DNA of 64,000 nucleotides from an uncultured Acidobacteriota bacterium (GTDB lineage Bacteria > Acidobacteriota > Thermoanaerobaculia > Gp7-AA8). The stretch spans positions 6,833 through 70,832 of the forward strand of contig CAWCBB010000008.1 of NCBI GenBank assembly GCA_963793695.1, read 5' to 3'. Both the position numbers and the translations under genes were made by a program. The notes beneath the pieces were generated by a model that ran no database searches, had not been told where the DNA came from, and saw only the letters and a list, made by a program, of their open reading frames with translations. Positions 12,406-49,650 of the stretch are shown here, piece by piece (the stretch's first letter is position 1; the number at the start of each line of letters is the position of its first letter).

Positions 12406-12482
12406 TCGCCGCGCAGATTAACACTCCGCGAGGTCGGAGCGCGGTTTTTCAATCTGCAATCTGCAATCCGCAATCTGCAATA
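12406..12482. repeat. heptamer array family B (AATCTGC x4.5), with a single upstream GCAGATT unit and an internal small hairpin
   Basis: caatctgcaatctgcaatccgcaatctgcaat. The same heptamer arrays occur at 20028-20172 and 49544-49650. Confidence 0.7.
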
Positions 12483-12496
12483 GAAAGAGCCGGACA

Positions 12497-12525
12497 AAGG
12501 CCGGCTTTTTCGAGAGGCGCGTGCG
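12497..12525. terminator. probable bidirectional intrinsic terminator hairpin (AGCCGGACAAAGGCCGGCT followed by TTTTT)
   Basis: A GC-rich stem-loop with a T-run on the plus strand and CTTTCT on the minus strand, directly downstream of the lipoprotein stop at 12534. Confidence 0.5.
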
Positions 12526-12533
12526 GCGCGGCC

Positions 12534-13301
12534 CTACTGCTGCGATTTCTGCTGGATGTCCTCGAGCGCCTTCTGCGCCTCGCCCGGCTTATCCTCGAAC
12601 TTCGACATCTCGGTCGCGAGGGCGTTGAGAGTGCTCTCGTACTTGGAGAGCAGCTCGCGGTTGGCCTTGACCGAAGGGTCGACCTGCTCCTGCTGCGCCG
12701 CCATCTCTTTGCGGTTCTTGTCGTACTCGGCGAGCATCCCCGCGAGGGCCTTCTTCGCCTCGGCGTCGGTGGCCGCGTCGTGCTGCTTTTTCAGCTCGTC
12801 GTACGCCTGGTCCATCATCGCCTTCGAGCTCTGCTGGAGCGACTCGGTGAACGCCGCGCCGCTCGCCTCGAGCACGCGCTCCTTCACCCACTGGTACTCG
12901 GCGGTGTTGAAGCCCAGCTCGTGCGCGGCGCGAATGTCCGCGGTCAGGAAGTCGGCGGCCGATCCGAGGGCCTTGAACCCCGCCATGACTCCCGCGATCG
13001 ACTTCTCACCCTTCCCCTCGGCCGATTTCGCCTGCTTCTCCATCTCCTTGCGCGCCACCAGAGCGATCGCCTTTTCCTTCTCCCGGACCTTCAGGTACAT
13101 CTGAATCTGAGCGTCGGTCAGCCGGGCGTCGGCCGGGGGATCGTACGAGTCTTCCGACGTTTTCTCGAGAAGCTCCTTCGTTCCGACGTCTTCGAGGTCG
13201 TCGGAAATCGCGGCCTCATCGACCGCCTTCTTGAGTTTGCATCCAGTGGGGACGAGAAGAAGGAGAAGCAGCCCGAGGGCGAGAGCGATGGAACGACGCA
13301 T
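12534..13301 (-). CDS. hypothetical lipoprotein (lipobox LLVPTGC), charged and coiled-coil-rich
   Basis: MRRSIALALGLLLLLLVPTGCKLKK... The ORF is clean and 255 aa long. Confidence 0.75.
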   Translation of the reverse strand: MRRSIALALGLLLLLLVPTGCKLKKAVDEAAISDDLEDVGTKELLEKTSEDSYDPPADARLTDAQIQMYLKVREKEKAIALVARKEMEKQAKSAEGKGEKSIAGVMAGFKALGSAADFLTADIRAAHELGFNTAEYQWVKERVLEASGAAFTESLQQSSKAMMDQAYDELKKQHDAATDAEAKKALAGMLAEYDKNRKEMAAQQEQVDPSVKANRELLSKYESTLNALATEMSKFEDKPGEAQKALEDIQQKSQQ

Positions 13302-13363
13302 GGATTGATTCCTCCAAATAAGTCACAAAAGTCTACTGAAGCTGCTTCGGGCGTTCAAGCAGC

Positions 13364-14467
13364 TCAGAACTTCCGGCCGAGCTCGCCGAACCCCGTGCGA
13401 AGGAGCTCTTTCAGCTCCGCGTAGTCCTTCCTCAGCGCATGGACGTCCGCGCGGAGCGCCTCGATTTCTCGGCGCAATCCCCCGGCGTCGATTCCCTCCG
13501 ACCGGGGCGCGGTTTTCGCGTCCGGCTCCTCGAACGCGATCGCGACGGGTAGGTCCTCGCCCAGAAGCGCCGCTTCGTCGAGAGCCTCGACGTCGTCGGC
13601 GAGCGCCACCGGGACCGGCACGTCACCGGCGATCGTGGCGGGACGCTCTCGTCCCTCCAGCAGCTGGTCGAGCGAGATCTCCTCGACTTTCTCGTAGCCG
13701 GCCGCGGGATCCCCGAACGGAGCGTCACCGAAGGGAGCGACGTCTTCCGGGGAAAACGAGGCGGCGAAGGGGTTCTGCTCGGGCTCGGTGACGTGCGGGG
13801 CGGGCGCTTCCTGCGTGGCGTGACGCTTGGACTTCTTCTCGTGTTTCGGCTTTGCCGCGGGCTTCGCGGGCGCTTTCCCCTGCAGCTTGTTGATGAGATG
13901 TTTCGCGGTGATCTTCGAGACGAGGGCGAACGTCTCCATCACGCCCTCGCCCTTGATCGCGGAGGATTCCTTCCAGGGGTAGCCTTCGAAGCCGAGCTGC
14001 TCCTCGAGCTCTTCGACCGGGAGGACGCCCGGCAGATCGCGCTTGTTGTACTGGATCACGATCGGGATGTCGTTCGTGTCGATCTCATTCTCACGGAGGT
14101 TCTCCATGAGGTTCTCGAAGCTCTCGCGGTTCGACTCGACGAGCGAGGGCTGGGAATCGGCGACGAAGACGACGGCGTCCGCTCCCTTGAGGACGAGCTT
14201 GCGGGTCTCGTTGTAGAAGACCTGGCCGGGGACCGTGTAGAGCTGGATCTTGAGGTTGAACGCGCCGATCTTGCCCACGTCCACCGGGAGAAGGTCGAAG
14301 AACAGCGTCCGGTCGGTCTTGGTCGCGAGCGAGAGCATCTTGCCGCGAGCCTTCGGGTCGAGCTTGTCGAAGATGACCAGAAGGTTCGTCGTCTTCCCGC
14401 AGAGGCCGGGGCCGTAATAGACGATCTTCGCGGTCATCTCGCGCGTTGCGTGATTGAACAGGACCAT
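13364..14467 (-). CDS. MglA-family Ras-like small GTPase with a C-terminal extension of about 170 aa that is low-complexity and coiled-coil
   Basis: The N-terminal 195 aa align to Myxococcus MglA (KIVYYGPGLCGKTTNL...TDRTLFFDLLP...LYTVPGQVFY...VFVADSQ...IQYNKRDLP). Then comes a KAPAKPAAKPKHEKKSKR... tail ending in a coiled-coil. Confidence 0.8.
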   Translation of the reverse strand: MVLFNHATREMTAKIVYYGPGLCGKTTNLLVIFDKLDPKARGKMLSLATKTDRTLFFDLLPVDVGKIGAFNLKIQLYTVPGQVFYNETRKLVLKGADAVVFVADSQPSLVESNRESFENLMENLRENEIDTNDIPIVIQYNKRDLPGVLPVEELEEQLGFEGYPWKESSAIKGEGVMETFALVSKITAKHLINKLQGKAPAKPAAKPKHEKKSKRHATQEAPAPHVTEPEQNPFAASFSPEDVAPFGDAPFGDPAAGYEKVEEISLDQLLEGRERPATIAGDVPVPVALADDVEALDEAALLGEDLPVAIAFEEPDAKTAPRSEGIDAGGLRREIEALRADVHALRKDYAELKELLRTGFGELGRKF

Positions 14468-14549
14468 CGATCTTCCTTCGAGATTGGCTGGAGGTCAGTA
14501 TCGCACCCGGGGCGGGCGGGGGAAAGGGGAGGGGGGGCAGAGGCAGAGA

Positions 14550-14680
14550 CAAATGCAAAATGCAAAATGCAGAATGCAAAATGAAAAATGCAGAAAGGGC
14601 CCGCGCGACGGTCAGGCCGCGCCCGGCGTGCTCTCGCCCGTTTTTGGACTTTTCATTTTGCATTCTGCATTTTGCATTCG
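14550..14680. repeat. heptamer array family A: inverted pair (AAATGCA)n ... (TGCATTT)n with a 40-nt GC-rich spacer
   Basis: The left arm caaatgcaaaatgcaaaatgcagaatgcaaaatgaaaaatgcagaaaggg and the right arm ccgtttttggacttttcattttgcattctgcattttgcattcg would form a stem of about 30 bp. Confidence 0.8.
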
Positions 14681-14697
14681 TGCGCGGAGCACACGTT

Positions 14698-14988
14698 CTA
14701 TGGGCCGTCATCCTGGCGCAGAACGACCACCGTCGCTCCCCACCCTCCGCCGCTGGCGTCGGCGTCGGCGTAGCTCTCGACGAACTCGAGGCGCTCGAGC
14801 AGGCTGCGGAGGATCCGCCGCTGCACCCCCATGCCTCTGCCGTGGATCAGCCGCACCTGCCGGAATCCCTTCGCCCGCGCCGCCTGGAGGTACTCGCTCG
14901 CCACATCCGCGACCTCGGCGGGACGGAACGGATGGAGGTCGATCGCGTCTTCGATCGGAATCTCGATCGGCTCGTCGGGGTCGCGCAT
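14698..14988 (-). CDS. Smr-domain protein, small and standalone
   Basis: [70 protein letters not shown] is the Smr signature (LDLHG...IHGKG). Confidence 0.7.
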
Positions 14989-15136
14989 GGGAGTGGGGGC
15001 GGCGATGATATCGTTCAGGAGCCGCAGGGGGAAGTCGTCCGGGGAAAGGGAGCTCTGGCACGGTCGCCGGTCCCGTTCCCATGCCCCCTTTCCCCTGACT
15101 ACGTTTCCCCGTCCACTCCAAGAGGAACCAACCCAG

Positions 15137-16127
15137 ATGACTACCCTTCTCGAAGAGCTCCAGCGCGTCGGGAGCTTCGAATATACGGCGGAGGACGCCC
15201 GGCGGTTCGAAGAGCTGCACGAAGAGATCCGCGCGCTCAAGAAGGAGCGGAACGCCGTCATCGTCGCGCACAACTACTACCGGCCCGAGATCCTGAAGGT
15301 CGCCGACTTCGTGGGCGATTCGCTCGAGCTCGCGCTGATGGCCTCGAAGGTGACCGAGGCCGACATCATCGATTTCTGCGGCGTCCACTTCATGGCGGAG
15401 ACCGCGAAGATCGTAAACCCCTCGAAGACGGTCCTCCTGCCCAACCTCCTGGCGGGATGTCAGCTCGCCGACTCGGCGCCTGCCGAGGACCTGGCCGCGA
15501 AGATCGAGGAGCTGAAGCGCGAGTATCCCGGACCTGGCCGTCGTCAGCTACGTCAACACGACCGCGGCCGTCAAAGCGCTCTCCACGATCATCTGCACCT
15601 CCGCGAACGCCGCGCGGATGGTCCGCTCGCTCCCGAACCGCAACATCCTCTTCGTTCCCGACCGCAACCTGGCGAACCACGTCGCCGAGCAGGTGCCGGA
15701 GAAGAACATCATTCCGTGGGACGGTTTCTGCTACGTCCATCAGCAGATCACGCCGGGAGAAGTGCAGCGGATCCGCGAGACCGATCCGGATCTGAAGGTC
15801 CTCGTCCACCCCGAATGCCGCCCCGACGTGGCGAGCCTCGCCGACGCGGTCCTCTCCACCTCCGGGATGGTCCGCTATGCGAAGGAGAACGAAGGGAAGC
15901 GCTTCCTCGTGGTCACCGAGTGCGGACTGTCCGACCGGCTCGCGATGGAAGTCCCCGAAAAGCAGTTCCTCAGGGGATGCCGCCTCTGCACCTTCATGAA
16001 GGTGACCACGCTCGAGGACGTCCGCGATTCGCTCAGGCACGTCCGGTACGAGATCGAAGTCCCCGAGCCGATCCGCGTCGAGGCGGAGCGGGCGCTTCGA
16101 GGGATGTTTCAGGTGGAGCAGCGATGA
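15137..16127 (+). CDS. nadA: quinolinate synthase A; one frameshift near nt 15530
   Basis: [20 protein letters not shown]...[28 protein letters not shown]...[13 protein letters not shown], then [15 protein letters not shown]...[11 protein letters not shown]...VHPECRPDV in a second frame. Confidence 0.85.
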
Positions 16128-16585
16128 GCGGCGCGCGGGCCGCGGAGCACGTGGAAGATCACGTTCCGCTCGAGGGGATCCGCGAGACGATCGAGATGGT
16201 CGTCTCGAGCCATGGAGGAGAAGTCCTCGATGTTTCGGCGCCCGACGCGGTCGCGTTCCGGCTGCCCGTCCGGCAGGGGATCGGCGCGAGCGGCGAGATC
16301 AGCGGGACGATCCGGTGGGAAGGAGATCCGGCGGACGGCGCGCTGCGCATCGTTTCGGACGGCGAGGTCACGCGGCCCCGGTGGTCGCACATCGCCATTC
16401 TCATCGCCGGGACCGTCGGCTCCCTGCTCTTCATCCTCTGGCCGTTCTACCCTGCGCTCGGTCCCGCCTCGTGGGTCGGCGGCGCGCTCGCCTTCGCGGC
16501 GTACTTTCTCACCCTTCGCCGTACCCACGGCGGCACCCTCGCGCGCCTCCTCGGCAACATCGCCGACGCGCAGAGGGAAGAGTAG
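16124..16585 (+). CDS. hypothetical membrane protein (153 aa); ATGA overlap with the nadA stop
   Basis: It sits in the open tail of the 14831-16585 ORF. There are two transmembrane helices ([41 protein letters not shown]). Confidence 0.5.
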
Positions 16586-16648
16586 AAACGTTCTTCGTTC
16601 TTCGTTCGTCGACAACGCCTCCGAGAACGGACCACCGCCCGCGACCGT

Positions 16649-18465
16649 TCAGAACCACGGCGTGGTGATCGCGATCGCGGGGATCGCCGCCACGATCCAT
16701 AGGGCGAGAACGGCGAGAGCCGGCGCCAACCGTCGCTGGCGGACGAGCAGCCAGGCTGCCGCCGGGATGCCGAAGAGAACCACGACGCCGGCGAGGGCCA
16801 CGAGCGGGTTTCCCGAGATCCAGCTCGCGAGCGCGGCGACGATGCCGGCGCCCGCGCCGCTGGCGAGGATCCGCAAAAGTCCGGCGGGGCGTTTCAGCCG
16901 CTTTCGTCCCAACGCGTAGATCGCGGACGCGGCCGCGCTGCAGAGGAGCAGGACGCCCGCCGCCCGCCAGGCGTAGGGAATGAGGACGGATCGAAATTCG
17001 AGGGTGTCCGCTCCCGGAGACTTCCGCAGCGCTTCCATCCCCGCGGCCATTCGCGTGAGGTTTCCGCGCGCTTGTTCGTCCAGGCCCTCGACGCGCACGA
17101 GCTCGTCGAGCGAGGAGAAGGGGGAGGCCTTCTGAATGCGCCGCGCCAGGGGGAGATCCACGCCCGGGATCGTGATGAGGTCGACGAGCGATGCTGCGTT
17201 CAGATCGAACGTGTGAGGTCGCGGCAGACCTCGAAACTGATCGAAGAGCGTCGTTCCGGTCGCGAATCCTTCCGCCGCGAGCCAGATCTCGGGCGGAAGT
17301 TCGAGGCTCTGTCCGGGGAAGACTTCGGCGAGTACCGCGGCGATCGCCGGCGCCTCGTCGGGGAATGCCTCGCCGTAGTCGCGGATCAGGGTCCGCGCAT
17401 CGGCCGCCTTCCGCAGCGCGATCACGTGGAAGATCTTCAGGTAGACGTTCTCCAGAGGCGAGACCTCCTCGGCGGATGTTCCGTATCGCCGTAGAACTCC
17501 GGTTCGCGGTACGTCCGCCGAAGGGTCGGGTCGGTCGCCCACCGCCAGAAGAACGTGCTCATCGCCCCTTCGATCGCGAAGAGCTGGGCCGCCGGACGCA
17601 TCGGTTGCGCCGGATCGCCGAGGATGACGCTCTCCATCAGATAGGCGGGATAGGGATCGCCCGACTCGAGCAGACGCTGCGGCACGTCCGGCTCGCGAAC
17701 GAACGCGTTCCGCTTCACCGCGAAGTAGCGGAGCGCGCGCTCGTCGTTGCTGTACCAGACAGGAAATCCGATGCGCATCCGGCCCACGGACGGGATTCGA
17801 GCGGCCAGCTCGTCGCCGTACTGCTCGAGGTGGCGCGTCGCTGCGTCGTCGAGGTCGCGCGCGCGCGAGAGCGCCCGCGTCTCGGGGGCCGCTCCCGCGT
17901 GGTCCACCGCCATCACCTGGAGATGCTCGGCGAACCCTTCGTCGAACGCGACGTAGCGATCCGTCCTCACCCCGACCGCATGCACCTGGTTCGCGCCGGC
18001 CGTGGCCGGCGCCTCCACGCCGAGCTCGTGGAGAATCGCGTGCGCGAGCTCGTGAGGGAAGATCTGGTCCACGGCCCCGAAGCTGCCGTGAAGAGGCCAC
18101 TCGTGGTGGATGTCGATGAAGGGCGTCCCCGGCTTCTTGAGGTCGCCCAGCCAGAAGCCGTAGCGGGGGAATCCGCCCTCCTCGTTGGACAGCAGGAGGT
18201 ATGCGGGCTCGATCCCGCGCCGCGCCCCGATCTGGAGGAACCGGTAGACCCGGAGCATCTCCGCCGCGACGCCGCGGTCGAGGCTCGCGGCGATGCGCGC
18301 GCTCTCGGTGTGCACCGCCAGCACGGGGAGACCCTCGCGCTCCGCGCCGGTCGGGCTCAGCACGACCAGGAGCGGCGGTTCGGCGACCGGCGCCGCGAAC
18401 GCGGCAGCGGAAGGTGTCGCGAGCGGCAGGATCAGGAGGAGGGCTCCAGCGCGCAGGTCCATCAC
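16649..18465 (-). CDS. secreted or membrane protein with a HExxH motif, a C-terminal helix-hairpin-helix and transmembrane helices; one frameshift near nt 17470
   Basis: Signal peptide MMDLRAGALLLILPLATPSAAAFA. Also ...FPHELAHAILHELG..., and in a second frame LNAASLVDLITIPGVDLPLARRIQKASPFSSLDELVRVEGL (HhH) plus 4 transmembrane helices. Confidence 0.65.
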
Positions 18466-18547
18466 AAACCGAGTACGCAGCGACCGGCCGGATGTTTACA
18501 GCGGGCGAAGAACGAAGAACGCCGAACGAAACGAAGGACGCTTCCCC

Positions 18548-20011: not shown

Positions 20012-20027
20012 GGATGGGATAGTGTAA

Positions 20028-20172
20028 TTGCAGATTGCAGATTGCAGATTGCAGATTGCAGATTGTTTTTCCTCCAAAGCGGCGATGGGACTTTGAGGAT
20101 CGGGCACCGATCAGTGATGATGGATGGGGTCGAGGGGTTTCAATCTGCAATCTGCAATCTGAGATCTGCAAT
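20028..20172. repeat. heptamer array family B: (GCAGATT)x5 ... 72-nt spacer ... (AATCTGC)x4
   Basis: ttgcagattgcagattgcagattgcagattgcagattg at 20028-20066 and caatctgcaatctgcaatctgagatctgcaat at 20141-20172. It lies between the GHL10 start (20011) and tRNA-Leu (20180). Confidence 0.8.
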
Positions 20173-20179
20173 CGAGACG

Positions 20180-20269
20180 GCCCCGGTGGCGGAATCTGGT
20201 AGACGCTGCGGACTTAAAATCCGCTGACCCGAAAGGGTCGTGCCGGTTCGAGTCCGGCCCGGGGCACCA
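20180..20269 (+). tRNA. tRNA-Leu (anticodon UAA), class II with a long variable arm, CCA encoded
   Basis: gccccgg tg gcggaatctggtagacgc tgcgga CTTAAAA tccgc tgacccgaaagggtcgtg gccgg ttcgagt ccggc ccggggc a cca. The acceptor stem pairs over 7 bp and the T-loop reads TTCGAGT. Confidence 0.85.
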
Positions 20270-20502
20270 AGACGAGTCTAGATCGCGAGTCTGCCAAGCA
20301 GTCAAGAGTCGAAGAGAATGAAGAATCTGGAGTCCGGGAGAGGATGATGAGCGGCGGTCCGCCGGCGGATTCGACGATCTGCACTCGGCAATCGTCATTC
20401 GGGCACGTGTGCTGGACCGATCATTCTGACATTCTGCAAAATTCTGCGAATGCGACCGGCGCCGCGGAGGCTCCCCGTCCGGCCCCCAGGAGGCACCTCT
20501 CG

Positions 20503-22151: not shown

Positions 22152-22162
22152 ACGTCTAGGGG

Positions 22163-22274
<112 letters not shown>

Positions 22275-23019: not shown

Positions 23020-23035
23020 TGTGGAAAGCATACAG

Positions 23036-23248
23036 CGTTCTCCGTTCTCCGTTCTCCGTTGTCCGTTCTCCGATCTCCGTTCGCCGTTCTCCGCGGCACC
23101 TCCCCGCGCCCGCGCCCGAGCCCGGATTCTCTTTCAGTCCGGACGAAACCGCGTCCGAGGTCGCAGTCCACACGATCTGCCGCGGAGAACGGAGAACGGA
23201 CAACGGAGAACGGAGAACGAAGAACGGGGAACGGAGAAACGAAGAACG
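23036..23248. repeat. heptamer array family C: (GTTCTCC)x8 ... 89-nt GC-hexamer spacer ... (GGAGAAC)x9
   Basis: cgttctccgttctccgttctccgttgtccgttctccgatctccgttcgccgttctccg at 23036-23093 and cggagaacggagaacggacaacggagaacggagaacgaagaacggggaacggagaaacgaagaacg at 23183-23248. The spacer contains ccccgcgcccgcgcccgagcccgg. Confidence 0.85.
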
Positions 23249-29292: not shown

Positions 29293-29294
29293 GC

Positions 29295-35099: not shown

Positions 35100-35215
35100 G
35101 AAATGCAAAATGCAGAATGCAAAATGTAAAGTCCCCAAAGGCGGTCGCCGGGCGGTCTCCTTTTTGGATTTTTCATTTTGTATTTTGCCCGGGTCCGAGA
35201 TCCGAGGTCCGAGGT
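35100..35215. repeat. heptamer array family A inverted pair (AAATGCAAAATGCAGAATGCAAAATG ... CATTTTGTATTTTGC), followed by (TCCGAGR)x3
   Basis: The arms are at 35100-35135 and 35157-35188, and tccgagatccgaggtccgaggt is at 35191-35215. It is intercistronic, 35 bp upstream of the squalene-synthase-like start and just after the oxidoreductase stop. Confidence 0.8.
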
Positions 35216-40454: not shown

Positions 40455-40457
40455 TCA

Positions 40458-40582
40458 AAAAAATGCAAAATGCAGAATGCAAAATGAAAAATACAAAAAG
40501 GGCGTGATGCTCACGTCTCGCAGGAAAGCCCCGATTCCCTCCTCTTTTTGTGTTTGACATTTTGCATTTTGCATTCTGCATT
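40458..40582. repeat. heptamer array family A inverted pair
   Basis: aaaaaaatgcaaaatgcagaatgcaaaatgaaaaatacaaaaaggg ... cctctttttgtgtttgacattttgcattttgcattctgcatt, between oppF and the tolC-like gene. Confidence 0.85.
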
Positions 40583-42445: not shown

Positions 42446-42549
42446 CGCGCGGGGGAGAGGGGCGATCGGATCACGGCGCAGACGGAAGCGAGTGTGCTAA
42501 AAGAGGCGCTGCCGTCCGTCCGTCCGATCGGCCGGAACAAGGAGATCCC

Positions 42550-43281
42550 ATGACTTCCTCCGCGGAAATCACCCCTCCGCCCACGCCCGCGCGCCGCCCC
42601 AACCCCTTCGCCAGGATCGCGGGACTCGTCAGCAACCCCTCCTCGACGATGGCGGACGTGGCCGAGCGCCCCGACTGGCTCGTCCCCTTCCTTCTGATCG
42701 TCGTCATCTCGATGGCGGCCAACTTCTTCGCCGCGCCGCACATGGATCTCGAGACGGGCCTGCGCGAGGAGCTCTCCGAGCGCGGCCTCAACGATCAGCA
42801 GATCGAGGATGCGATCGGCCGCGTGGCGACGTTCCAGAAGTTCGGCGCGCCGGTCACCGCGATCACCGTCGCCATCGTGCTCCTCGCGGTCGCGGCGCTC
42901 TACATGCTCCTCTCGCGGCTCTTCGGCGGGGAGGGGACGTTCCGGCAGTACTTCGCCGTGACGAACTACGCGTGGCTGCCGCAGCTCCTCAAGGGGGTGC
43001 TGCTCGTGCTGCTCCTCGTGCGCGCGGGATCGCTCGTGCCCGAACAGATGGGCAGCCTTCTGAAATCGAATCTCGGGTTTCTCGCGGACCCGACCGATCA
43101 GCCGATCCTCTCCGCGTTCCTGACCAGCATCGATCTGTTCAACTTCGCGGCGCTGGCCCTGATGATCTTCGGCTACGGCCGCGCCTCGAAGCTCGGGAAG
43201 CAGAAGATGGCGGTCATCGTGATCGCTTCGTATCTCGTCTGGATCGGCGTTCGGGTCGGCATCGCGGCGCTGAAGGCATGA
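42550..43281 (+). CDS. Yip1-domain membrane protein
   Basis: Five transmembrane helices, and DWLVPFLLIVVISMAANFFAAPHM. Confidence 0.65.
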   Translation: MTSSAEITPPPTPARRPNPFARIAGLVSNPSSTMADVAERPDWLVPFLLIVVISMAANFFAAPHMDLETGLREELSERGLNDQQIEDAIGRVATFQKFGAPVTAITVAIVLLAVAALYMLLSRLFGGEGTFRQYFAVTNYAWLPQLLKGVLLVLLLVRAGSLVPEQMGSLLKSNLGFLADPTDQPILSAFLTSIDLFNFAALALMIFGYGRASKLGKQKMAVIVIASYLVWIGVRVGIAALKA

Positions 43282-43300
43282 GTCGGGTGAGGACGAGACC

Positions 43301-44581
43301 TTGAAGCGCTGGATCTGGATCGGAGCCGGGGTCGCGCTCGTCGCGATCATCGTGATCGCGAGCGTCGCGAGCGGCGGCGAGAAGGGGGAGAAGGTCTACG
43401 TCGAGCCCGTCGGCCGCCGCGACATCCAGGCGGTCGTCTCCGCTCCCGGCCAGATCGACCCCAAGGTCAAGGTCAACATCAGCGCCCACGTCATCGGGAA
43501 GATCGAGAAGCTCTATTTCGAAGAGGGGCAGACGGTCCGGCGGGGCGATCGGCTCGTCGATCTCGAGAAGATCGCATTCACCGCGGCGGCGGATCAGGCA
43601 GCCTCCCTCGTCGCGAACCGCCGGATCGAGGTCCGGAGGACGCGCAACAATCTCGAGAACGCGCAGCGCGTTCTGGTCAGGGCCGAGAGCCTGAGTCGCG
43701 AAGGCGTCCTCAACCAGGAGTTGTTGGACCGCTCACGCCTCGAGCACGACACGGCCCGCACCTCGCTCGCCTCTGCCGAGGAAGGCGTCCGCCAGGCGGA
43801 AGCGGCGCTGCGCCAGGCGAGAGAGGACCTGCAGCGGACCACGATCGTCGCTCCCATCAGCGGCCGGATCGTCCAGAAGAACGCGCAGGAGGGGGAAGTC
43901 GTCATCACCGGGACCATGAACAACCCCGGATCGGTGATCGCGATCCTCGCGGACCTCTCCGAGGTGCTCGTCGAAGCCGACGTCGGGGAGACCGAGGTCG
44001 TCAAGGTGCGCGTGGGCCAGTCGGCCGAGATCCGGGTCGATGCGATCCCCGACGCCGTCTTCAAGGGGAGCGTCGTGGAGATCGGCAGCTCGGCCTCGCA
44101 GCGCGCGGGCGTGAGCACGGGCATCCGGTACTTCAAGGTGAAGATCGCGATCATCGCGCCCGACGAGCGGCTCCGGCCGGGGATGACGGCCCAGGTCGAC
44201 ATCATCACGAGCGCGCTGCGGCAGGCGCTGTCGGTCCCCGTGCAGAGCGTCGTCGAGCGGACAGCCGAGGAGCTCGTCAAGGGTAGGAAGTCGCGCGTGA
44301 GCGGCCCTTCGGACGCGCTGAAGGACAAATTCGTTTTCGTCGTCCGGGACGGCGTCGCCGAGGCGGTGAAGGTCACGACCGGCATCAGCAACGCGACGCA
44401 CGTGGCGGTCCTCTCGGGCCTCAAAGGCGGCGAGAGCATCGTCACCGGTCCCTTCCGGACGCTCCGCAACCTGAAGAAGGGTGACAAGGTCCGAATCGAC
44501 ACCGGGGAAGAGAAGGAACGCCCAAAGGATGATGCGAAGGACGGGAACGACGAGAAGGGCGAGGACGAGAAGGGCGAATAG
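43301..44581 (+). CDS. efflux periplasmic adaptor (HlyD/MacA membrane-fusion protein)
   Basis: An N-terminal transmembrane helix, a coiled-coil hairpin, TTIVAPISGRIV, and a beta-barrel/MPD domain. Clean. Confidence 0.8.
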   Translation: MKRWIWIGAGVALVAIIVIASVASGGEKGEKVYVEPVGRRDIQAVVSAPGQIDPKVKVNISAHVIGKIEKLYFEEGQTVRRGDRLVDLEKIAFTAAADQAASLVANRRIEVRRTRNNLENAQRVLVRAESLSREGVLNQELLDRSRLEHDTARTSLASAEEGVRQAEAALRQAREDLQRTTIVAPISGRIVQKNAQEGEVVITGTMNNPGSVIAILADLSEVLVEADVGETEVVKVRVGQSAEIRVDAIPDAVFKGSVVEIGSSASQRAGVSTGIRYFKVKIAIIAPDERLRPGMTAQVDIITSALRQALSVPVQSVVERTAEELVKGRKSRVSGPSDALKDKFVFVVRDGVAEAVKVTTGISNATHVAVLSGLKGGESIVTGPFRTLRNLKKGDKVRIDTGEEKERPKDDAKDGNDEKGEDEKGE

Positions 44582-44590
44582 AGGCGTTTC

Positions 44591-44717
44591 CCGTTCTCCG
44601 TTCTCCGTTCTCCGGAAACCAAGGGCCTCTGGCGTGCGTACAGGAGAATGGACGAAAAGCCGGGCCCGGGCCCGGGCGCGGGTGGGGGCGGAGAACGAAG
44701 AACGGAGAACGAAGGAC
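44591..44717. repeat. heptamer array family C inverted pair (GTTCTCC)x3 ... (GGGCCC)n spacer ... (GAGAACG)x4
   Basis: ccgttctccgttctccgttctccgg, a spacer with gggcccgggcccgggcgcgggtggggg, then gcggagaacgaagaacggagaacgaaggac. It lies between the macA-like and macB-ATPase genes. Confidence 0.8.
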
Positions 44718-44734
44718 GCCTCTCCAGGAATGAC

Positions 44735-45430
44735 ATGACGGATCAAGCGAACACCAACGGCAAGCACCTGATCGAGATGCACGAGCTGGTCAGGGTGTAT
44801 GAAATGGGCGCGGAGAAGGTGTACGCGCTCCGCGGCGTGAATCTCACGGTCGAACACGCGGAGTACGTGGCGATCATGGGGCCGTCCGGGTCGGGGAAAT
44901 CGACGCTGATGAACATCATCGGCTGTCTCGACTCGCCGAGCTCGGGCCGGTACCTCCTCGACGGGACCTCCGTCGACACGATGAACGAGGACGAGCTCGC
45001 GGCGGTACGGAACAAGAAGATCGGCTTCGTCTTCCAGACCTTCAACCTCTTGGCGCGGACGACGGCGCTCCACAATGTCGAGCTCCCGCTCATTTACGCG
45101 CGCATTCCCCGCGCGGAGCGGCGCGCGCGCGCCGAGCAGGTGCTGGCCGAAGTCGGCCTCGCCGACCGGATGCATCACCAGCCCAACGAGCTCTCCGGCG
45201 GGCAGCGGCAGCGGGTCGCGATCGCGCGCGCCCTGGTGAACCGCCCCTCGCTGCTCCTGGCCGACGAGCCGACCGGAAATCTCGACTCGAAGACCGGCCG
45301 GGAGATCCTCGACCTGTTCCGCAACCTCGCCGACCGCGGCAACTCGATCATCCTGGTCACGCACGAGGAAGACGTCGCCGCCGAGGCGACGAGGATCATC
45401 CACATCCGCGACGGGATCATCGCGAACTGA
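44735..45430 (+). CDS. MacB/LolD-type ABC transporter ATP-binding protein
   Basis: [49 protein letters not shown]...[15 protein letters not shown]...[11 protein letters not shown]. Confidence 0.85.
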
Positions 45431-45550
45431 GGGTCTGGGAGTCTCGGCGTCTGGGGAGTCGCTTCGCCTATACCCGTGATTCATGTCTCTATGGCTCGAA
45501 CCGCTCAGGTGCAGACTCTGTATTGGCCGAGGCCTAGTCTCCTAGACGCC
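45430..45550. repeat. family D inverted pair (GGGTCTGGGAGTCTCGGCGTCTGGGGAGTC ... CTAGTCTCCTAGACGCCTAGACTTCCAGACGCG)
   Basis: Intercistronic between the macB ATPase stop and the permease start (45568). Confidence 0.65.
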
Positions 45551-45567
45551 TAGACTTCCAGACGCGC

Positions 45568-46794
45568 ATGTTCTCCGAAAACCTCAAGATCGCGCTCAAG
45601 GCCCTCTGGGCCAACAAGATGCGCTCGATCCTCACGACGCTGGGGATCATCATCGGCGTCGCGTCGGTCATCGCCGTGGTCTCGCTGGTTCAGGGGATGG
45701 AGCACGGCATCGCGACCGAGCTCGAGGGCGTCGGCGCGACCTACATCCGGGTCGTCCCCGACGCCGGCGAGCAGCGGAACACCTTCAACCCGAAGATCCC
45801 CTCTCTCACGTACGACGACGGCGTCGCGGTCCTGAACGGGTCGCCGGAGATCGTCGAGTTCACGCCGATCTTCTTCCGCAACGCCGAGCTGCGGATCGGC
45901 GACACGCGCCACTCCGCGACCATGCTCGGCGTGAGCGAGTCCTACCAGGACGTCGTGAACCACTGGGTGGACCGCGGTCGTTTCTTCACGCCGCTCGACA
46001 TCGCCGAGAAGAAGCGCGTCGCCACGATCGGCATCGAAGCCGCCCGGAAGCTCGGGATCGGCGACGAACCGATCGGGAAGCTCGTCCGGATCGAGGGGAA
46101 CGCCTTCACGATCGTCGGCACGATGGAAAAGAAGGGCCAGATGTTCGCGCAGGACCAGGACGACCTGGTCCTGATCCCCTTCACGACGTCGAGCGCCCTC
46201 TACGGCCCCGAGGCCGTGCGCACGCTGATCCTCGACTTCCAGGCGGCCTCGGCCAGCTCGACCGACCTCGCCCGCGAGCAGATCCGGGACATCCTCCGCT
46301 CCCGCCACGGCCTTCGAAAGGAAGAGCAGAAGGACGACTTCCGGATCGTCCTCCAGGAAGAGATCCTCGAAGCCGTCGGCAAGGCGCTCATGATGACGTC
46401 CCTCATCATGGCCGCGATCGTCGGGATCGCGCTCCTCGTCGGCGGCATCGGCATCATGAACATCATGCTGGTGTCCGTCACCGAGCGGACGCGCGAGATC
46501 GGCGTGCGGAAGGCGGTCGGCGCGCGGCGGCAGGACGTCCTGCTGCAGTTCCTCATCGAGGCGATCGCGCTCTCGGGACTCGGCGGGGTGGTCGGCATCG
46601 GGCTGGGCGTGGGGCTCGCCATGGCCGTCCGCCAACTCCTCACGAAGTGGGTCACCTTCCCGCCCGTCCACACGCCCCTCTGGGCGATCGTCCTCGCGTT
46701 CACCTTCTGCGGCGCGCTGGGGATCATCTTCGGGATCTATCCCGCGGCCAAAGCCTCGAAGCTCGATCCGATCGACGCGCTCCGCTACGAGTAG
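45568..46794 (+). CDS. MacB-type ABC transporter permease (FtsX family)
   Basis: MacB periplasmic domain plus 4 transmembrane helices. ...GIGIMNIMLVSVTERTREIGVRKAVGA... Clean. Confidence 0.85.
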   Translation: MFSENLKIALKALWANKMRSILTTLGIIIGVASVIAVVSLVQGMEHGIATELEGVGATYIRVVPDAGEQRNTFNPKIPSLTYDDGVAVLNGSPEIVEFTPIFFRNAELRIGDTRHSATMLGVSESYQDVVNHWVDRGRFFTPLDIAEKKRVATIGIEAARKLGIGDEPIGKLVRIEGNAFTIVGTMEKKGQMFAQDQDDLVLIPFTTSSALYGPEAVRTLILDFQAASASSTDLAREQIRDILRSRHGLRKEEQKDDFRIVLQEEILEAVGKALMMTSLIMAAIVGIALLVGGIGIMNIMLVSVTERTREIGVRKAVGARRQDVLLQFLIEAIALSGLGGVVGIGLGVGLAMAVRQLLTKWVTFPPVHTPLWAIVLAFTFCGALGIIFGIYPAAKASKLDPIDALRYE

Positions 46795-46821
46795 GGGCGC
46801 CCTGCGGGCGCCGCGGCCCTG

Positions 46822-46900
46822 CGGAGAACGAAGAACGAAGAACGGGCGCGCGCAGCGCGCCCCTACGATGACGAAATCGGTCTTGCCGATTTCGTCATTT
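46822..46900. terminator. composite 3' region: a GAGAACG heptamer array, a REP-like palindrome (46844-46866) and a perfect 11-bp hairpin GACGAAATCGG-tcttgc-CCGATTTCGTC
   Basis: It lies between the convergent macB permease (+) and efp (-) genes. gcggagaacgaagaacgaagaacgg is adjacent to the REP. Confidence 0.5.
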
Positions 46901-47452
46901 GGCCCGCTCGATGTAGCTGTTGTCGCTCGGGTCGATGATCAGCTCCGTTCCCTCGTCGATGAACGGGGGAACCTGGACCACGATCCCGTTCTCGAGCGTG
47001 GCGGGCTTGTACGAGGCGGAGGCGGTCGCCCCCTTCACGAGCGGCTGGGTCTCGGCGACCTTCGCGCGGATCGTCTTCGGCAGCTCGACCCCGATCGGCC
47101 GCTGCTCGTAGAACTGCACCTGGAGCTTGAGACCCGGAGAGAGCCACTGCGCCGCCGGGCCGAGGTCCTGAGCGGAGATCTCGACCTGCTCGTAGCTTTC
47201 CGTGTTCAGGAAGTGATGGGCCGCCGCGTCGGAGTACATGTGCTCCATCTCGTGGGTCTCGATGAACGCCTGTTCGATCGTGTCGCCCGACCGGAACCGA
47301 TGCTCGAACTGGTTTCCCGTCCGGAGATTCCGGAGCTTCGCCTGAACCATCGCGCGAAGGTTTCCGGGGGTGTGATGGCGGAACTCCATCACTTTGCACA
47401 GGTCTCCGTTGAACAGGATCACCATGCCGTTGCGAAGATCGTTTGCCTGCAT
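46895..47452 (-). CDS. efp: elongation factor P
   Basis: MQANDLRNGMVILFNGDLCKVMEFRHHTPGNLRAMVQAKLRNLRTGNQFEHRF..., 185 aa, clean. Confidence 0.9.
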   Translation of the reverse strand: MQANDLRNGMVILFNGDLCKVMEFRHHTPGNLRAMVQAKLRNLRTGNQFEHRFRSGDTIEQAFIETHEMEHMYSDAAAHHFLNTESYEQVEISAQDLGPAAQWLSPGLKLQVQFYEQRPIGVELPKTIRAKVAETQPLVKGATASASYKPATLENGIVVQVPPFIDEGTELIIDPSDNSYIERAK

Positions 47453-47658
47453 CGGTCAGCCCTTCTTTTCTGAGGTTGCGCGCCGCGCGCGGCGGCCACC
47501 CACGTCCGTCGCGCCAAACCGGCGCGGAGAAGGAGGTTATTCCGGGTGGCATCGGACGCGGACCCTGGGACCGATGGGGCGGATCGGTCTGGCGTCCTCA
47601 TGAGGAGGAAGCTGGCATCCTTCCGGTGACGCCCGTTACGCGACTTCGGCGGGGACGC

Positions 47659-47664
47659 GCTACA
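47659..47664 (+). promoter_or_regulatory. candidate -10 hexamer (TACAAT) in the divergent efp/pilT intergenic region
   Basis: cgcgcTACAATcctcg, about 60 nt upstream of the pilT GTG start. No clean -35 was found. Confidence 0.2.
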
Positions 47665-47722
47665 ATCCTCGTAACTTTCCAGCGTATTTTGGGCCAACAA
47701 CGGAAACATCCGAGGTGATTCG

Positions 47723-48903
47723 GTGCACATCAACGACCTTCTGAAGATCGCCGCCGAGCGGCGCGCGTCCGACCTCCACATCAAGGTCGGCTCCCATCCC
47801 GTCATCCGCGTCGACGGCGAGCTGATCCCGCTCGTCGAGCTCAAGCGCCTCATGCAGGAAGACACCATCGCGATGGCGTTCTCGATGATGTCCTCCCGGC
47901 AGAAGGAGAAGTTCAAGAACAACTTCGAGATCGACTTCGCCTACTCGGTCCCCGGCCTCGGCCGGTTCCGCTGCAACATCTTCCAGCAGCGCGGCACGGT
48001 CGGCCTCGTCCTCCGCGTCATTCCCGGTGAAGATCAACTACGATCCGCGAGCTGATGCTCCCGAACATCCTCGAGAAGATCTGCGAGGAGCGGCGCGGGC
48101 TGATCCTCTGCACCGGGACGACGGGCTCGGGCAAGTCGACCACGCTCGCGGCGATGATCGACTACATCAACTCGCACCGCACCGAGCACATCATCACCGT
48201 CGAGGACCCGATCGAGTTCCTCCACCGCGACAAGAAGTCGATCGTCAATCAGCGCGAGGTCGAGGTCGACACGAAGAGCTTCTCGCAGGCCCTCCGCTCG
48301 GCCCTCCGCCAGGACCCCGACGTCATCCTCGTCGGCGAGATGCGCGACTACGAGACGATCGAGACGGCGCTGACCGCCGCCGAGACCGGCCACCTCGTCC
48401 TCTCGACGCTCCACACCCTCGACGCGACCGAGACGATCAACCGCATCATCTCCGTCTTCCCGCCGCACCAGCAGAAGCAGATCCGCCTGCAGCTCGCGGC
48501 CGTCCTCAAGGCGGTCGTCTCGCTCCGCCTCCTCCCGCGCGCGGACGGTCTGGGCCGCGTGCCGGCGGCCGAGGTCCTGATCAGCACGAACTACATCCGG
48601 GACTGCATCGAGAACAAGGAAAAGACGAAGCTGATCAAGGACGCGATCACGCAGGGGACCTCGCAGTACGGGATGCAGACGTTCGACCAGTCGATCTACA
48701 CGCTCTATCGCAACGGCCTGATCACCCTCGACGAGGCGCTGCGCCGCGCCACGAACCCGGACGAGTTCAAGCTCAAGATCCAGGGCGTCCAGTCGACCTC
48801 CGACATTGCGCGCGAGGAGATGGACGGGCAGCTCAAGGTCGCCTCCGACAACGATCCGTTCAGCGAGGAGTCGCCGTTCGATTTCGGGAACCAGCTGCCG
48901 TAG
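47723..48903 (+). CDS. pilT: type IV pilus twitching-motility ATPase PilT; one frameshift near nt 48030
   Basis: GTG start after GAGGTGA. MHINDLLKIAAERRASDLHIKVGSHPVIRVDGELIPL... Second frame: LILCTGTTGSGKSTTLAAMIDYIN...VEDPIEFLHRDKKSIVNQREV...MQTFDQSIYTLYRNGLITLDEAL. Confidence 0.85.
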
Positions 48904-48933
48904 GGCAGCTGGTTCCTGAACGCGCCTGCGGCG

Positions 48934-49034
48934 CAAATGCAAAATGCAAAATGCAAAATGAAAAATACAAAAAGGGGCTGATGCCATAATCCCCCTTTTG
49001 GACTTTTCATTTTGCATTTTGCATTTTGCATTTG
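48934..49034. repeat. heptamer array family A inverted pair with a near-perfect 40-bp stem and a 13-nt loop
   Basis: caaatgcaaaatgcaaaatgcaaaatgaaaaatacaaaaagggg ctgatgccataat ccccttttggacttttcattttgcattttgcattttgcatttg, between pilT and recX. Confidence 0.9.
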
Positions 49035-49041
49035 TCTTCTG

Positions 49042-49545
49042 ATGGCGATGTCCGACCAATCTCCCGAGGACCGCTGCTACCACGCCGCCCTCCGCCTGCT
49101 CGGCTACCGCTTCCGGAGCGAGGCCGAGCTGCGCAAGCGGCTCCGCGAGAAGGAGCACGAGGCCGAGGCGATCGACACGGCGCTCGCGCGGCTCCGCGGC
49201 GAGGGTTGGATCGACGACGCCCGGTTCGCGAGCGTGCTCGCCGAATCGAAGAGCCGGAAGGGAATCGGCCCGAAACGCGTCGGGCTCGAGCTGCGGCGCC
49301 TCGGCGTCGACGACGAGATCGCGGGCGCAGCCATCCACGGCGCCGATCCGGAGACGGCCGAGAGCGACCTTGCCTCCCTCGTCCGGAAGCGCATCCGGAT
49401 CCTCGGCCGCAGCCACGGTCCCGGATGGGTGCCCGGCGAAGGACGACCGAAAGAAATTGCTGGTGTATCTGTTACGGCAGGGATACGAGTACGCCGCCGC
49501 CGGTCAGGCGCTCGACGCAGGCCTCGAAGAAGGGACGCGATTGTT
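49042..49545 (+). CDS. recX: regulatory protein RecX; one frameshift near nt 49420; the 3' end is uncertain because the reading frame runs into the heptamer array
   Basis: MAMSDQSPEDRCYHAALRLLGYRFRSEAELRKRLREKEHEAEAIDTALARLRGEGWIDDARFASVLAES..., then DDRKKLLVYLLRQGYEYAAAGQALDAGLEEG in a second frame. Confidence 0.7.
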
Positions 49546-49650
49546 GCAGATCGCAGATTGCAGATTGCAGTTGGAATCGCCGCATGATTCCGAACGACAT
49601 GGCGAACGTCCGAGCGATGGTTTCAATCTGCAATCTGCGACAATCTGCAA
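49544..49650. repeat. heptamer array family B inverted pair, (GCAGATY)x4 ... 50 nt ... (AATCTGC)x3, ending 10 nt before the alaS ATG
   Basis: ttgcagatcgcagattgcagattgcag ... tcaatctgcaatctgcgacaatctgcaag. Confidence 0.8.

Follow-up and report, generated by a model that had tools for sequence, protein, structure and literature searches.

The window analysed here is a 64-kb stretch of DNA from an indel-rich Thermoanaerobaculia (Acidobacteriota) assembly with many frameshifts. It contains three arrays of the form (GCAGATT)n-spacer-(AATCTGC)n, designated B1 (12413-12481), B2 (20027-20173) and B3 (49544-49650). Three such loci had been proposed in the initial annotation, and all are present: the two-unit 14-mer GCAGATTGCAGATT, searched with up to two mismatches, has 14 matches in the window, every one inside B1, B2 or B3, against 0.19 ± 0.42 expected; in 100 shuffles the count always stayed below 14. 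The approximately ten palindromic heptamer elements of the window share a single architecture and fall into at least three unit families, of which "family B" is one (Table 1).

Table 1. Coordinates of the heptamer elements of the window and of the hairpin adjoining B1.
Feature	Position	Strand	Remarks
B1, lop-sided family B element	12413..12481	.	GCAGATT x1 (12413-19), 30-nt spacer, AATCTGC x4.6 (12450-81); from sequence and match in L117
Terminator-like hairpin GCCGG..CCGGC	12488..12510	.	T-run on both strands; conserved in L117
A1, family A, (AAAATGC)6 ... (GCATTYT)3.7	14551..14679	.	architecture as family B
B2 5' arm, (ATTGCAG)5.6	20027..20065	.	100% repeat identity
B2 spacer, ~75 nt	20066..20140	.	
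B2 3' arm, (CAATCTG)4.7	20141..20173	.	two mismatches
C1, family C, (CGTTCTC)8 ... (CGGAGAA)9	23036..23248	.	
A2, family A	35101..35188	.	
A3, family A	40460..40582	.	
C2, family C	44585..44718	.	between gene stop (44581) and following start
A4, family A	48935..49033	.	between T2SSE-like gene stop (48903) and recX ATG (49042)
B3 5' arm, (TTGCAGA)3.9	49544..49570	.	abuts recX 3' end
B3 spacer, 53 nt	49571..49623	.	own small hairpin, GGAAUCG..CGAUUCC
B3 3' arm, CAATCTGCAATCTGCGACAATCTGCAA	49624..49650	.	~3 units

B2 fills the divergent spacer between a GHL10 gene (Pfam, 1e-67) and tRNA-Leu(UAA) (20180-20269), its 5' arm beginning 16 nt from the GHL10 ATG (20011, minus strand) and its 3' arm stopping 6 nt before the tRNA. 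The 3' arm of B3 ends 10 nt ahead of the alaS ATG (49660). In the window alaS shifts frame approximately every 60-70 codons. ATG 49660 is out of frame with the AlaRS N-terminus but nonetheless aligns with the alaS start of relatives. In these relatives recX encodes 164-167 aa, with its stop codon directly against the first repeat unit; the corrected recX frame of the window crosses the whole of B3 and reaches a TGA at 49655-57. B1, read on the minus strand, lies just past the canonical terminator hairpin listed in Table 1, which itself follows the stop (12534) of a 255-aa gene. It is ~295 nt upstream of the next ATG (12119), with a different 24-nt inverted repeat in between, and has a small hairpin (12424-39) within its own spacer. 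B2 and B3 do adjoin gene starts, but B1 is not promoter-proximal as had been proposed.

The whole of B2 folds at -73.2 kcal/mol (z = -7.0 on the plus strand and -9.5 on the minus strand) and B3 at -49.6 kcal/mol (z = -5.6), within a range of -20 to -73 kcal/mol for the long, near-perfect hairpins of the class. Within family B, unit positions 3-7 (AGATT) are 94-99% conserved, although the conservation of positions 4-7 is partly fixed by the choice of register, and positions 1-2 are variable. Variant units are mirrored across both arms of an element, and inner motifs are family-specific and common to the copies within one genome.

Elements of this type are abundant in related genomes. In six loci fetched by protein homology, period-7 arrays occupy 16 of 29 intergenic regions, at a density in relatives of 6.4 per kb of intergenic DNA versus none in 34.6 kb of coding DNA. 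Across the class, arrays of period 7 number 332, those of periods 8 and 9 only 32 and 46. Among 102 neighbouring array pairs from 116 loci and the window, 63 are inverted with at most one unit mismatch and 6 are direct. In the typical element a variable spacer (median 24 nt) separates ~4-5 tandem 7-nt units from ~4-5 reverse-complement units. Arm length has a narrow range around 4.5 units and polarity is fixed, GCAGATT always being on the 5' side and the 5' arm being G-rich in 19 families versus 3. The elements occupy the non-coding gap between genes, typically beginning at the stop codon and leaving ~10 nt ahead of the following start: in co-directional cases the 5' arm starts a median of 3 nt past the upstream stop codon, and the median distance between the end of the 3' arm and the next start codon is 11 nt (33 cases). 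The arms do end close to starts, but the earlier statement that these are not terminator positions is not supported, the positions being equally 3'-end ones. As to the idea that the arrays occupy 5' leader and promoter space, 34 of 41 elements lie between co-directional genes, five between convergent and only two between divergent ones, and a search of 28.5 kb around the elements gave no sigma-70-like promoter match.

At orthologous sites the elements persist while the unit turns over and the arms stay complementary. B1 is conserved in the relative L117 with the same lop-sided shape (93% identity over ~200 nt), so that a perfect 4.5-unit arm is kept in two genomes without a partner arm; pairing is evidently not needed for array upkeep. 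B2 is conserved in L117 and L118, where ~35 nt of its spacer on the tRNA side are partly conserved and the remainder is not. In copy number, a comparison that had been suggested, relatives differ by whole 7-nt units, as in an exact 7-nt gap in the left arm of B2 in L117. The A1 site is occupied by an A-type ortholog in L118; in L117 the unit there is a different one, GACTCCN.

Turnover is clearest in the recX-alaS spacer, compared in five genomes with RecX identities of 59-92%. The window and three relatives carry a palindromic heptamer array there, and the fifth genome, L122, a shorter palindrome with GGAGTC-like units. The unit is GCAGATT only in the window and L123, GAATGCA in L120 and GAATGTT in L121, and the B3 spacer is unrelated to the spacers of these three relatives. 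Because the arms match each other in each genome despite the differing units, the conserved feature appears to be structure or arm-to-arm copying. At the position of B3, the closest relative, L120 (RecX 92%), carries an A-type element with the family motif; in the most distant, L122, the neighbouring T2SSE-recX site holds an ordinary hairpin. In E. coli, alaS has a palindrome at its promoter and is autoregulated by AlaRS, an analogy drawn in the initial annotation. Both cases share recX-alaS synteny and a palindrome just upstream of alaS, but that of the window is a generic repeat of a type recurring at many unrelated genes, and its sequence is not conserved upstream of alaS in relatives. A conserved AlaRS operator was rejected on these differences in unit and spacer, and a dedicated control switch for alaS or tRNA-Leu was likewise rejected, the arrays being a genome-wide class.

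The same architecture has already been described in other bacteria, where its function is not established, and the GCAGATT arrays belong to this class, seen before without explanation. The GGGAATC heptameric repeats of Xanthomonas comprise ~185-186 arrays with 70-75 inverted pairs; ~90% are intergenic, mostly with ~4 copies, at an average distance of 28 nt from the upstream ORF, most are transcribed, few lie between divergent genes, and length varies by species at conserved sites (Rehm et al. 2015; PMC4692102). They resemble the present elements in their tandem 7-nt units, mostly inverted pairing, proximity to the upstream ORF, G-rich 5' arm, length variation at conserved sites and lack of an assigned function. 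The differences are that GCAGATT has no G-tract, so the G-quadruplex idea is inapplicable here, and that the present host is an acidobacterium and not a gammaproteobacterium; the coexistence of several unrelated unit families in one window and the documented replacement of units at orthologous sites are further additions to the Xanthomonas case. In Geobacter metallireducens, "putative global regulator binding sites" of classes 1-3 include paired tandem MTYCTGA (class 3, five units) and TCTCCGTS (class 2), at only 8-24 pairs per class, and were read as putative IHF/HU-type protein sites (Aklujkar et al. 2009; PMC2700814). These too are opposite-strand pairs at variable distance with 3-5 tandem repeats per site and lie between genes (e.g., proB-proA); MTYCTGA resembles the ATTCTGC/AATCTGA of the present elements and TCTCCGTS the family C unit CGTTCTC, although some Geobacter classes use units of 8-9 nt (PMC2700814). 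Cyanobacterial STRR (short tandemly repeated repetitive) heptamers and TAACTGA repeats are dispersed and intergenic (PMC4679880), and Nostoc tandem heptamers are intergenic repeats without assigned function (bioRxiv 10.1101/2022.06.06.494920). The cyanobacterial heptamers are likewise often a few nt from start codons, with similar units in distant phyla; the TAACTGA repeats, however, form 169 direct sets and one inverted and carry stop codons in all frames (PMC4679880), whereas the present elements are palindromic pairs open in all six frames.

B1-B3 are very likely members of this genome-wide class of palindromic heptanucleotide repeats, and the elements are most likely generic intergenic hairpins comparable to REP elements. 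REP, BIME and REPIN sequences are mostly co-transcribed and lie at 3' ends or between cistrons; REPs have a conserved GTAG end, depend on RAYT transposases and are not tandem microsatellites. Those of enterobacteria and pseudomonads resemble the present elements as abundant intergenic palindromes forming hairpin doublets, with families evolving within a genome, and differ in that family B consists of tandem heptamer arrays without the GTAG end; REP/BIME serves here as a working analogy for how the elements might act. The arrays would evolve like microsatellites by replication slippage, with template switching or conversion inside the palindrome copying one arm onto the other, and families would spread or become homogenised in a genome. 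When transcribed together with its flanking genes, the 21-40 bp duplex would form a generic intercistronic hairpin that, by analogy with REP/BIME, could be a read-through barrier or attenuator, could block 3' exonucleases and would be a likely RNase III substrate uncoupling neighbouring cistrons. The elements are probably not gene-specific regulators of alaS, GHL10 or tRNA-Leu. Identity and RNA-hairpin function taken together are given a probability of about 0.5; the function by itself, which presupposes co-transcription and an RNA role, is held only tentatively. Arm mismatches on the sense strand show no G.U excess over A.C (10 vs 22), so complementarity looks maintained at the DNA level and not selected in RNA, and at B1 and C1, which both lie downstream of canonical terminators, a transcript-end role would be redundant. 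The B1 arm that persists without a partner also weighs against this reading. A purely structural role leaves two observations unaccounted for, the constant polarity and the presence of similar units in unrelated phyla.

It is possible, if on the unlikely side, that the elements are functionless, self-perpetuating DNA: palindromic microsatellites born at intergenic hairpins, growing by slippage until coding sequence is reached, kept perfect by arm-to-arm template switching and persisting where selection allows. The exact filling of the gap (stop +3 nt to start -11 nt), the absence of arrays from coding DNA, the freedom of the unit to change at an orthologous site, the missing G.U signature and the maintenance of the lone B1 arm are all consistent with this, as are decayed and half-deleted copies beside tRNA-Leu in the window, L117 and L118. 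Bacterial heptamer simple repeats are moreover over-represented, which has been ascribed to polymerase slippage (PMC4692102). Against it stand the under-use of divergent spacers (2 of 41), the narrow arm length, the fixed polarity and the palindrome at recX-alaS in all five genomes, which together with the ordinary T2SSE-recX hairpin of L122 suggests that a hairpin is wanted there.

It is improbable that the arrays are sites for a sequence-specific protein, whether a nucleoid-associated or global regulator of the kind suggested for Geobacter, a single-strand RNA or DNA binder with a ~7-nt footprint such as a cold-shock or S1-type domain, or the AlaRS or iteron-binding protein of the initial annotation. 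The AGATT core (again subject to the choice of register), the constant polarity and the presence of similar units in distant phyla (MTYCTGA and TCTCCGT in Geobacter; a GATT/AATC core in Xanthomonas and Nostoc) would suit such a protein, and heptamer deletion altered recO reporter behaviour in Nostoc constructs (bioRxiv 10.1101/2022.06.06.494920). However, the unit differs at orthologous sites of close relatives, one and the same genome has many unrelated units, no gene keeps a single conserved recognition sequence, and in the literature none of the heptamer families has a known binding protein. AlaRS is contradicted by the unconserved sequence upstream of alaS and the same arrays beside unrelated genes, and iterons do not fit 7-nt units, inverted arms and the absence of a replication context; any sequence-specific binder would be a genome-wide factor, not AlaRS.

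Similarly doubtful is a reading of the elements as bidirectional intrinsic terminators, with repeat arrays that grew out of their A-tract and U-tract flanks. Family A elements, A4 among them, have centres of the form AAAAAGGGG-loop-CCCCCTTTT, after which comes U-rich (GCAUUUU)n; in many phyla the junctions of family B have the form GATTGAAA-stem-TTTCAATC; arrays begin at stop codons, and several spacers hold terminator-like matches (12424-39, 14590-604, 35143-57, 40503-15, 44660-75). Yet such sites are not enriched over shuffles (12 vs 7.5 ± 2.7; 9 vs 8.3 ± 3.0) and are absent from B2 and B3, which also counts against the RNA-hairpin role; family C has its pyrimidine-rich arm on the 5' side, the minimal elements in L043 and L081 have a 0-4 nt loop without a separate GC stem or U-tract, B1 and C1 already follow separate strong terminators, and with the next start codon ~11 nt off there is no room for a downstream promoter.

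Least probable is spread as non-autonomous mobile elements, like MITEs or REPINs, by a putative enzyme. In its favour, family A copies share a non-repeat inner motif (AAAAATRCAAAAAGGG in the window, AAAAATCCAGAAAGG in relatives), L120 carries its A-type element at the B3 site, and GCAGATT palindromes adjoin unrelated genes in many phyla and occur in 11 viral contigs, but copies lack a conserved spacer, B2 showed no target-site duplication, the GTAG-type REP signature is absent, and composition-matched control heptamer arrays occur in viral contigs too (1, 2 and 6 matches vs 11).

Inverted arrays of the heptamer GCAGATT and its complement AATCTGC (family B) are present in the window at all three loci named in the initial annotation. 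The two-unit 14-mer GCAGATTGCAGATT yielded 14 matches in the window at up to two mismatches, every one of them within these loci, against a mean of 0.19 in dinucleotide-preserving shuffles. The arrays found by Tandem Repeats Finder contain 3.9–5.6 unit copies at period 7, and an AGATT core is conserved within the family B units. The cleanest element is B2, whose left arm of 5.6 perfect units and right arm of 4.7 units, separated by a spacer of ~75 nt, lie between the GHL10 lipoprotein gene (ATG at 20011, minus strand; Pfam 1e-67) and a tRNA-Leu(UAA) gene beginning at 20180. B3, between recX and alaS, ends 10 nt ahead of the alaS ATG at 49660. Both are full inverted pairs, with hairpin fold z-scores of −7.0 (B2) and −5.6 (B3); B1 is lop-sided, with one unit in its left arm and 4.6 in its right. 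In an Rfam 15 search of the whole window at the gathering score, the tRNA-Leu was the sole match.

Period-7 arrays of family B in the window
Feature	Position	Method
B1 right arm	12450-12481	Tandem Repeats Finder
B2 left arm	20027-20065	Tandem Repeats Finder
B2 right arm	20141-20173	Tandem Repeats Finder
B3 left arm	49544-49570	Tandem Repeats Finder
B3 right arm	49624-49638	Tandem Repeats Finder

Family B belongs to a known, still unexplained kind of repeat, the inverted-pair heptanucleotide repeats of the Xanthomonas/Geobacter type, and displays all four features tested for membership: arrays of at least two to three tandem 7-nt units; pairing on opposite strands at short but variable spacing; many dispersed intergenic copies near the upstream ORF, with few between divergent genes; and length polymorphism at conserved sites. 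The over-representation and inverted pairing of bacterial heptamers have been noted repeatedly, in the cyanobacterial STRR, in Geobacter in 2009 (PMC2700814) and in Xanthomonas in 2015 (PMC4692102). The Xanthomonas GGGAATC repeats, whose architecture matches that of the window elements, comprise ~186 intergenic arrays and 70–75 inverted pairs, lie close to the upstream ORF and are mostly transcribed, with no function found (PMC4692102). Geobacter metallireducens carries paired tandem-repeat "global regulator sites", of which the class 3 unit MTYCTGA resembles window families A and B and the class 2 unit TCTCCGTS resembles family C (PMC2700814). The same architecture is seen in the cyanobacterial STRR and in Nostoc and Beggiatoa heptamers located by start codons (PMC4679880; bioRxiv 10.1101/2022.06.06.494920). 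A function or mechanism has been established for none of these published repeats, and no GCAGATT repeat in this sense was found in a literature search. Within the window, family B is accompanied by four (AAAATGC)n...(GCATTTT)n elements (family A), two (CGTTCTC)n...(GAGAACG)n elements (family C) and several single arrays, making ~10 heptamer elements in 64 kb at a G+C content of 63–70%.

The initial annotation had read the family B arrays as promoter or leader elements, possibly iteron-like or comparable to an AlaRS operator. Proximity to start codons and length change by whole units were borne out; gene-specific or iteron-like regulation was not. B2 occupies the same site, between tRNA-Leu and the GHL10 start, in two syntenic loci recovered through GHL10 homologs of ~80% protein identity (L117, from GCA_040961035.1, and L118, from a JGI metagenome). 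In both, the arms are GCAGATT, and the spacer shows partial conservation over ~35 nt. One difference in B2 among the three sequences is an exact 7-nt gap, and length also differs at the recX-alaS site. B1 is likewise conserved in L117, its lop-sided shape included. At the recX-alaS spacer, compared in four loci with RecX identities of 59–92%, the unit itself changes. One relative (L123) has a GCAGATT palindrome around an unrelated spacer, the closest relative (L120) has (GAATGCA)4...(TGCATTC), L121 has a perfect (GAATGTT)4...(AACATTC)4 palindrome, and L122 has a short palindrome of GGAGTC-like units. Turnover is similar in the next spacer upstream, between the T2SSE-like gene and recX: the window has family A there, L120, L121 and L123 have GGGTCTA/GGAGTCT types, and L122 has a plain hairpin. 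What is conserved is the palindromic, 7-periodic architecture and the place between genes, and not the sequence itself; neither AlaRS nor any other gene-specific regulator can therefore have a conserved operator here. An AlaRS-type operator should be a specific palindrome conserved among relatives, and both units and spacers ahead of alaS differ in L120, L121, L122 and L123. Searches for additional relatives gave one distant match (35%) for RecX in metagenomes and, for an AlaRS fragment, just fragments of unrelated long-read MAGs.

Other identities were rejected on their tested defining features. Iterons are expected to be direct repeats of ~17–22 bp by a replication initiator gene or origin; family B instead has 7-nt units in inverted arms, with GHL10, tRNA-Leu, recX and alaS as neighbours. 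REP or REPIN elements are imperfect palindromes of 20–40 nt that end in a conserved GTAG, a feature lacking from the tandem-heptamer arms of family B. A MITE should combine terminal inverted repeats with a conserved interior and a target-site duplication, but the spacers here are unrelated between copies and no such duplication was seen at the borders of B2. G-quadruplex heptamers (GGGAATC/GGGGAYT) require a tract of three to four Gs per unit, and GCAGATT is without any G-run. STRR1–3 of heterocystous cyanobacteria have other units (CCCCAGT, TTGGTCA, CAACAGT), and the host is placed by the names of the closest homologs of its GHL10 and RecX proteins in the Thermoanaerobaculia, Acidobacteriota; these two proteins have identical counterparts on a 223-kb NCBI/ENA contig. 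Among RNA-level candidates, an RNase E site (AG|AUU) would fit family B alone, Rho rut sites would lie in a paired arm and Hfq ARN motifs have the wrong period; a CRISPR array was considered and dropped. An assembly artefact was also dismissed, as independent assemblies, from short reads as well as from long reads, contain the elements.

A search for TTTCAATCTGCAATCTGC with one genome per species returned at least 116 loci, against ~17 matches expected by chance by our own estimate; a few of the matches listed are clearly coding or chance. The listed matches come from Acidobacteriota, Planctomycetota (many of them Gemmataceae), Chloroflexota, Verrucomicrobiota, delta-proteobacterial lineages, Bacteroidota, cyanobacteria and others. 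The contig from which the window derives is not in this set, where an alaS fragment gave the only match to the window, at 76%. Among these matches and the window, period-7 arrays (332) far outnumber those of period 8 (32) and period 9 (46), and period 7 exceeds every other period in the range 5–11. The same set contains 102 pairs of neighbouring arrays; 63 of them are inverted, their unit consensi differing by no more than one mismatch, and six are direct. A typical element there has 32-nt arms and a 24-nt spacer, with a loop of just 0–4 nt in some; hairpin energies range from −20 to −73 kcal/mol, and a variant unit in one arm is mirrored at the pairing position of the other. Polarity in this set is fixed, the GCAGATT-type unit being 5' in 33/33 pairs, and, of 28 unit families, 19 have more G than C in the 5' arm and three have less. 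The correlation of arm lengths (r = 0.02) carries no information, given how little these lengths vary. In viral contigs, (GCAGATT)3 gave 11 matches, three control arrays of matched composition gave 1, 2 and 6, and (AAAATGC)3 gave 23; GCAGATT is thus only modestly favoured there, which is no strong evidence of specificity.

The position of the elements was approximated with a codon-score heuristic for the coding strand and frame of the flanks. By these gene calls, 34/41 elements lie between co-directional genes, 5/41 between convergent and 2/41 between divergent genes. In the co-directional cases, a median of 3 nt separates the upstream stop codon from the 5' arm, and a median of 11 nt separates the 3' arm from the first in-frame start past the array. 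The spacing of B3 ahead of alaS, singled out in the initial annotation, is therefore the norm for the class. The elements occupy 3'-end positions as much as 5' positions. Nor is B1 promoter-proximal: on the minus strand it directly follows a canonical terminator hairpin (12488-12510), itself after a gene stop, and is separated by ~295 nt, including an unrelated 24-nt inverted repeat, from the next ATG (12119, minus). In six loci of relatives with supplied gene calls, period-7 arrays occur in 16 of 29 intergenic regions, making this lineage an extreme case in which more than half of such regions carry these elements. The 39 arrays in these loci amount to 6.4 per kb of intergenic DNA, compared with at most 0.8 per kb for other periods, and none was found in 34.6 kb of their coding DNA.

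We favour a reading of these elements as slippage-driven microsatellite palindromes, and combine it with an inferred function: if transcribed, they would behave as generic hairpins between cistrons. Slippage would drive the growth and loss of units, and complementarity would be kept through copying between arms. RNase III cuts duplex RNA of about two helical turns. Transcripts of the elements would fold into duplexes of 21–40 bp, which could serve as a barrier to read-through, as 3'-end protection and as a likely RNase III substrate. Since architecture and position are conserved and sequence is not, the core of the elements is likely to be either structural or a DNA process that maintains itself. 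A non-repeat inner motif recurs among family A copies and is specific to each genome, which points to homogenisation or spread inside a genome. Comparison of relatives sets three constraints on any explanation: the arms co-vary completely even as the unit at a given site is replaced, the arrays are wedged between the stop codon and the next ribosome-binding region, and polarity is fixed.

A purely neutral or selfish origin is a strong rival, since four results weigh against a hairpin function. Arm mismatches on the sense strand show no excess of G.U (10) over A.C (22), a negative result for selection at the RNA level; the B1 array is kept without a partner arm; B1 and C1, a family C element, come after separate terminators; and terminator-like sites are not enriched over shuffles. 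The terminator scan, for a GC-rich stem with a loop of 3–8 nt and a T-run after it, gave a weak match in the B1 spacer (12424-39) and several in the spacers of families A and C; B2 and B3 had none. A sequence-preferring binding factor is possible and draws support from three observations: polarity is fixed, the AGATT core is conserved, and similar units turn up again in Geobacter, Xanthomonas and Nostoc. It is improbable, and here offered as speculation, that palindromic heptamer arrays form one cross-phylum system, a "punctuation" installed and kept between genes by a conserved cellular activity, which might be a protein that binds with some sequence preference or an enzyme dedicated to copying or mobilising the arrays. 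Such a system would explain why polarity is fixed with the G-rich arm 5', why ~4.5 units is the preferred size, why one family can take another's place at a given site, and why the same unit types (KCAGATT/GCAGAAT and TCTCCGT) recur across phyla (Acidobacteriota, Planctomycetota, Chloroflexota, Verrucomicrobiota, Desulfuromonadota and cyanobacteria). As for promoter activity, a sigma-70 scan returned no sites in 12000-24000 and 34000-50500, and by eye the periodic arms gave no convincing match to −35/−10 boxes at 16–18 nt spacing. Phase-variable repeats switch expression through unit number from within an ORF or between the −35 and −10 boxes; a 7-nt unit would shift the frame, no period-7 array lies inside an ORF in the six loci of relatives, and the scan gave no sigma-70-like match.

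Taken singly, the finding is ordinary for this genome; the class is abundant and widespread, without a mechanism so far, and its members are open to being mistaken for gene-specific operators, as in the initial annotation. Because the elements are open in all six frames, they also lengthen ORF calls. The recX gene (49042-49657) is an example. This gene also has one frame shift; the annotated RecX of 181 aa runs in the shifted frame, while relatives have 164–167 aa. The alaS gene (49660-52400) changes frame every ~60–70 codons, and several other window genes cover only part of their Pfam model. The broken genes, essential and otherwise, are alaS, recX and those at 48055-48903, 10987-12321 and 20344-21921, and the frequent frameshifts indicate an indel-rich, probably long-read, assembly and not pseudogenes. 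Assemblies of short-read relatives seem to break at the elements: position 1 of the L117 contig, one of its ends, lies inside a heptamer array, and the L120 and L121 contigs start inside or beside one.

Several other features were observed. Between B1 and the start of the PALP gene (ATG 12119, minus) is a perfect inverted repeat of 24 nt, GTCATCCCGAGCGTAGCGAGGGAT, at 12188-12211 (minus) and 12340-12363 (plus). Its arms are separated by 128 nt; conserved in L117, it is another kind of palindromic element than the heptamer arrays. Just past the tRNA-Leu 3' end, a family A arm (TCTGGATT..ATTCTGC x3) is found in opposite orientations in L117 (1-73) and L118 (2590-2631), as if different halves of one ancestral palindrome had been kept, and the window retains merely a decayed copy. 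A (GCCCGA)13 hexamer array at 22198-22274, inside the minus-strand ORF 22156-23031, would give the product a Ser-Gly repeat close to its C-terminus. An ARAGORN "tRNA-???" with a four-base anticodon (26072-26165, minus), within a long ORF and without Rfam support, is probably a false positive. Separate REP-like GTAG...CTAC palindromes occur in the window (46794-46870), L120 (3640-3720) and L121 (3675-3900). The window copy, GTAGGGGCGCC...GGCGCGCCCCTAC, encloses a (GGAGAAC/GAAGAAC)3 array, and GTAGGGACCGG...CCGGTCCCTAC copies follow alaS in L120 and L121, in tandem in the latter. The Verrucomicrobia MAG JACRJZ01 contains a dispersed repeat of at least six copies (L003, L023, L085, L096, L100, L109), in which an (AATCTGC)2-3 array is central to a longer inverted repeat, GTAGCAGCCGACGTGAGGAGGCTC...GAGCCTCCTCACGTCGGCTGCTAC, with a REP-like GTAG end. 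In another comparison locus (L021, 1703-1779), the unit of an inverted heptamer element is the plant-type telomere repeat (TTTAGGG/TTAGGGT ... AACCCTA).
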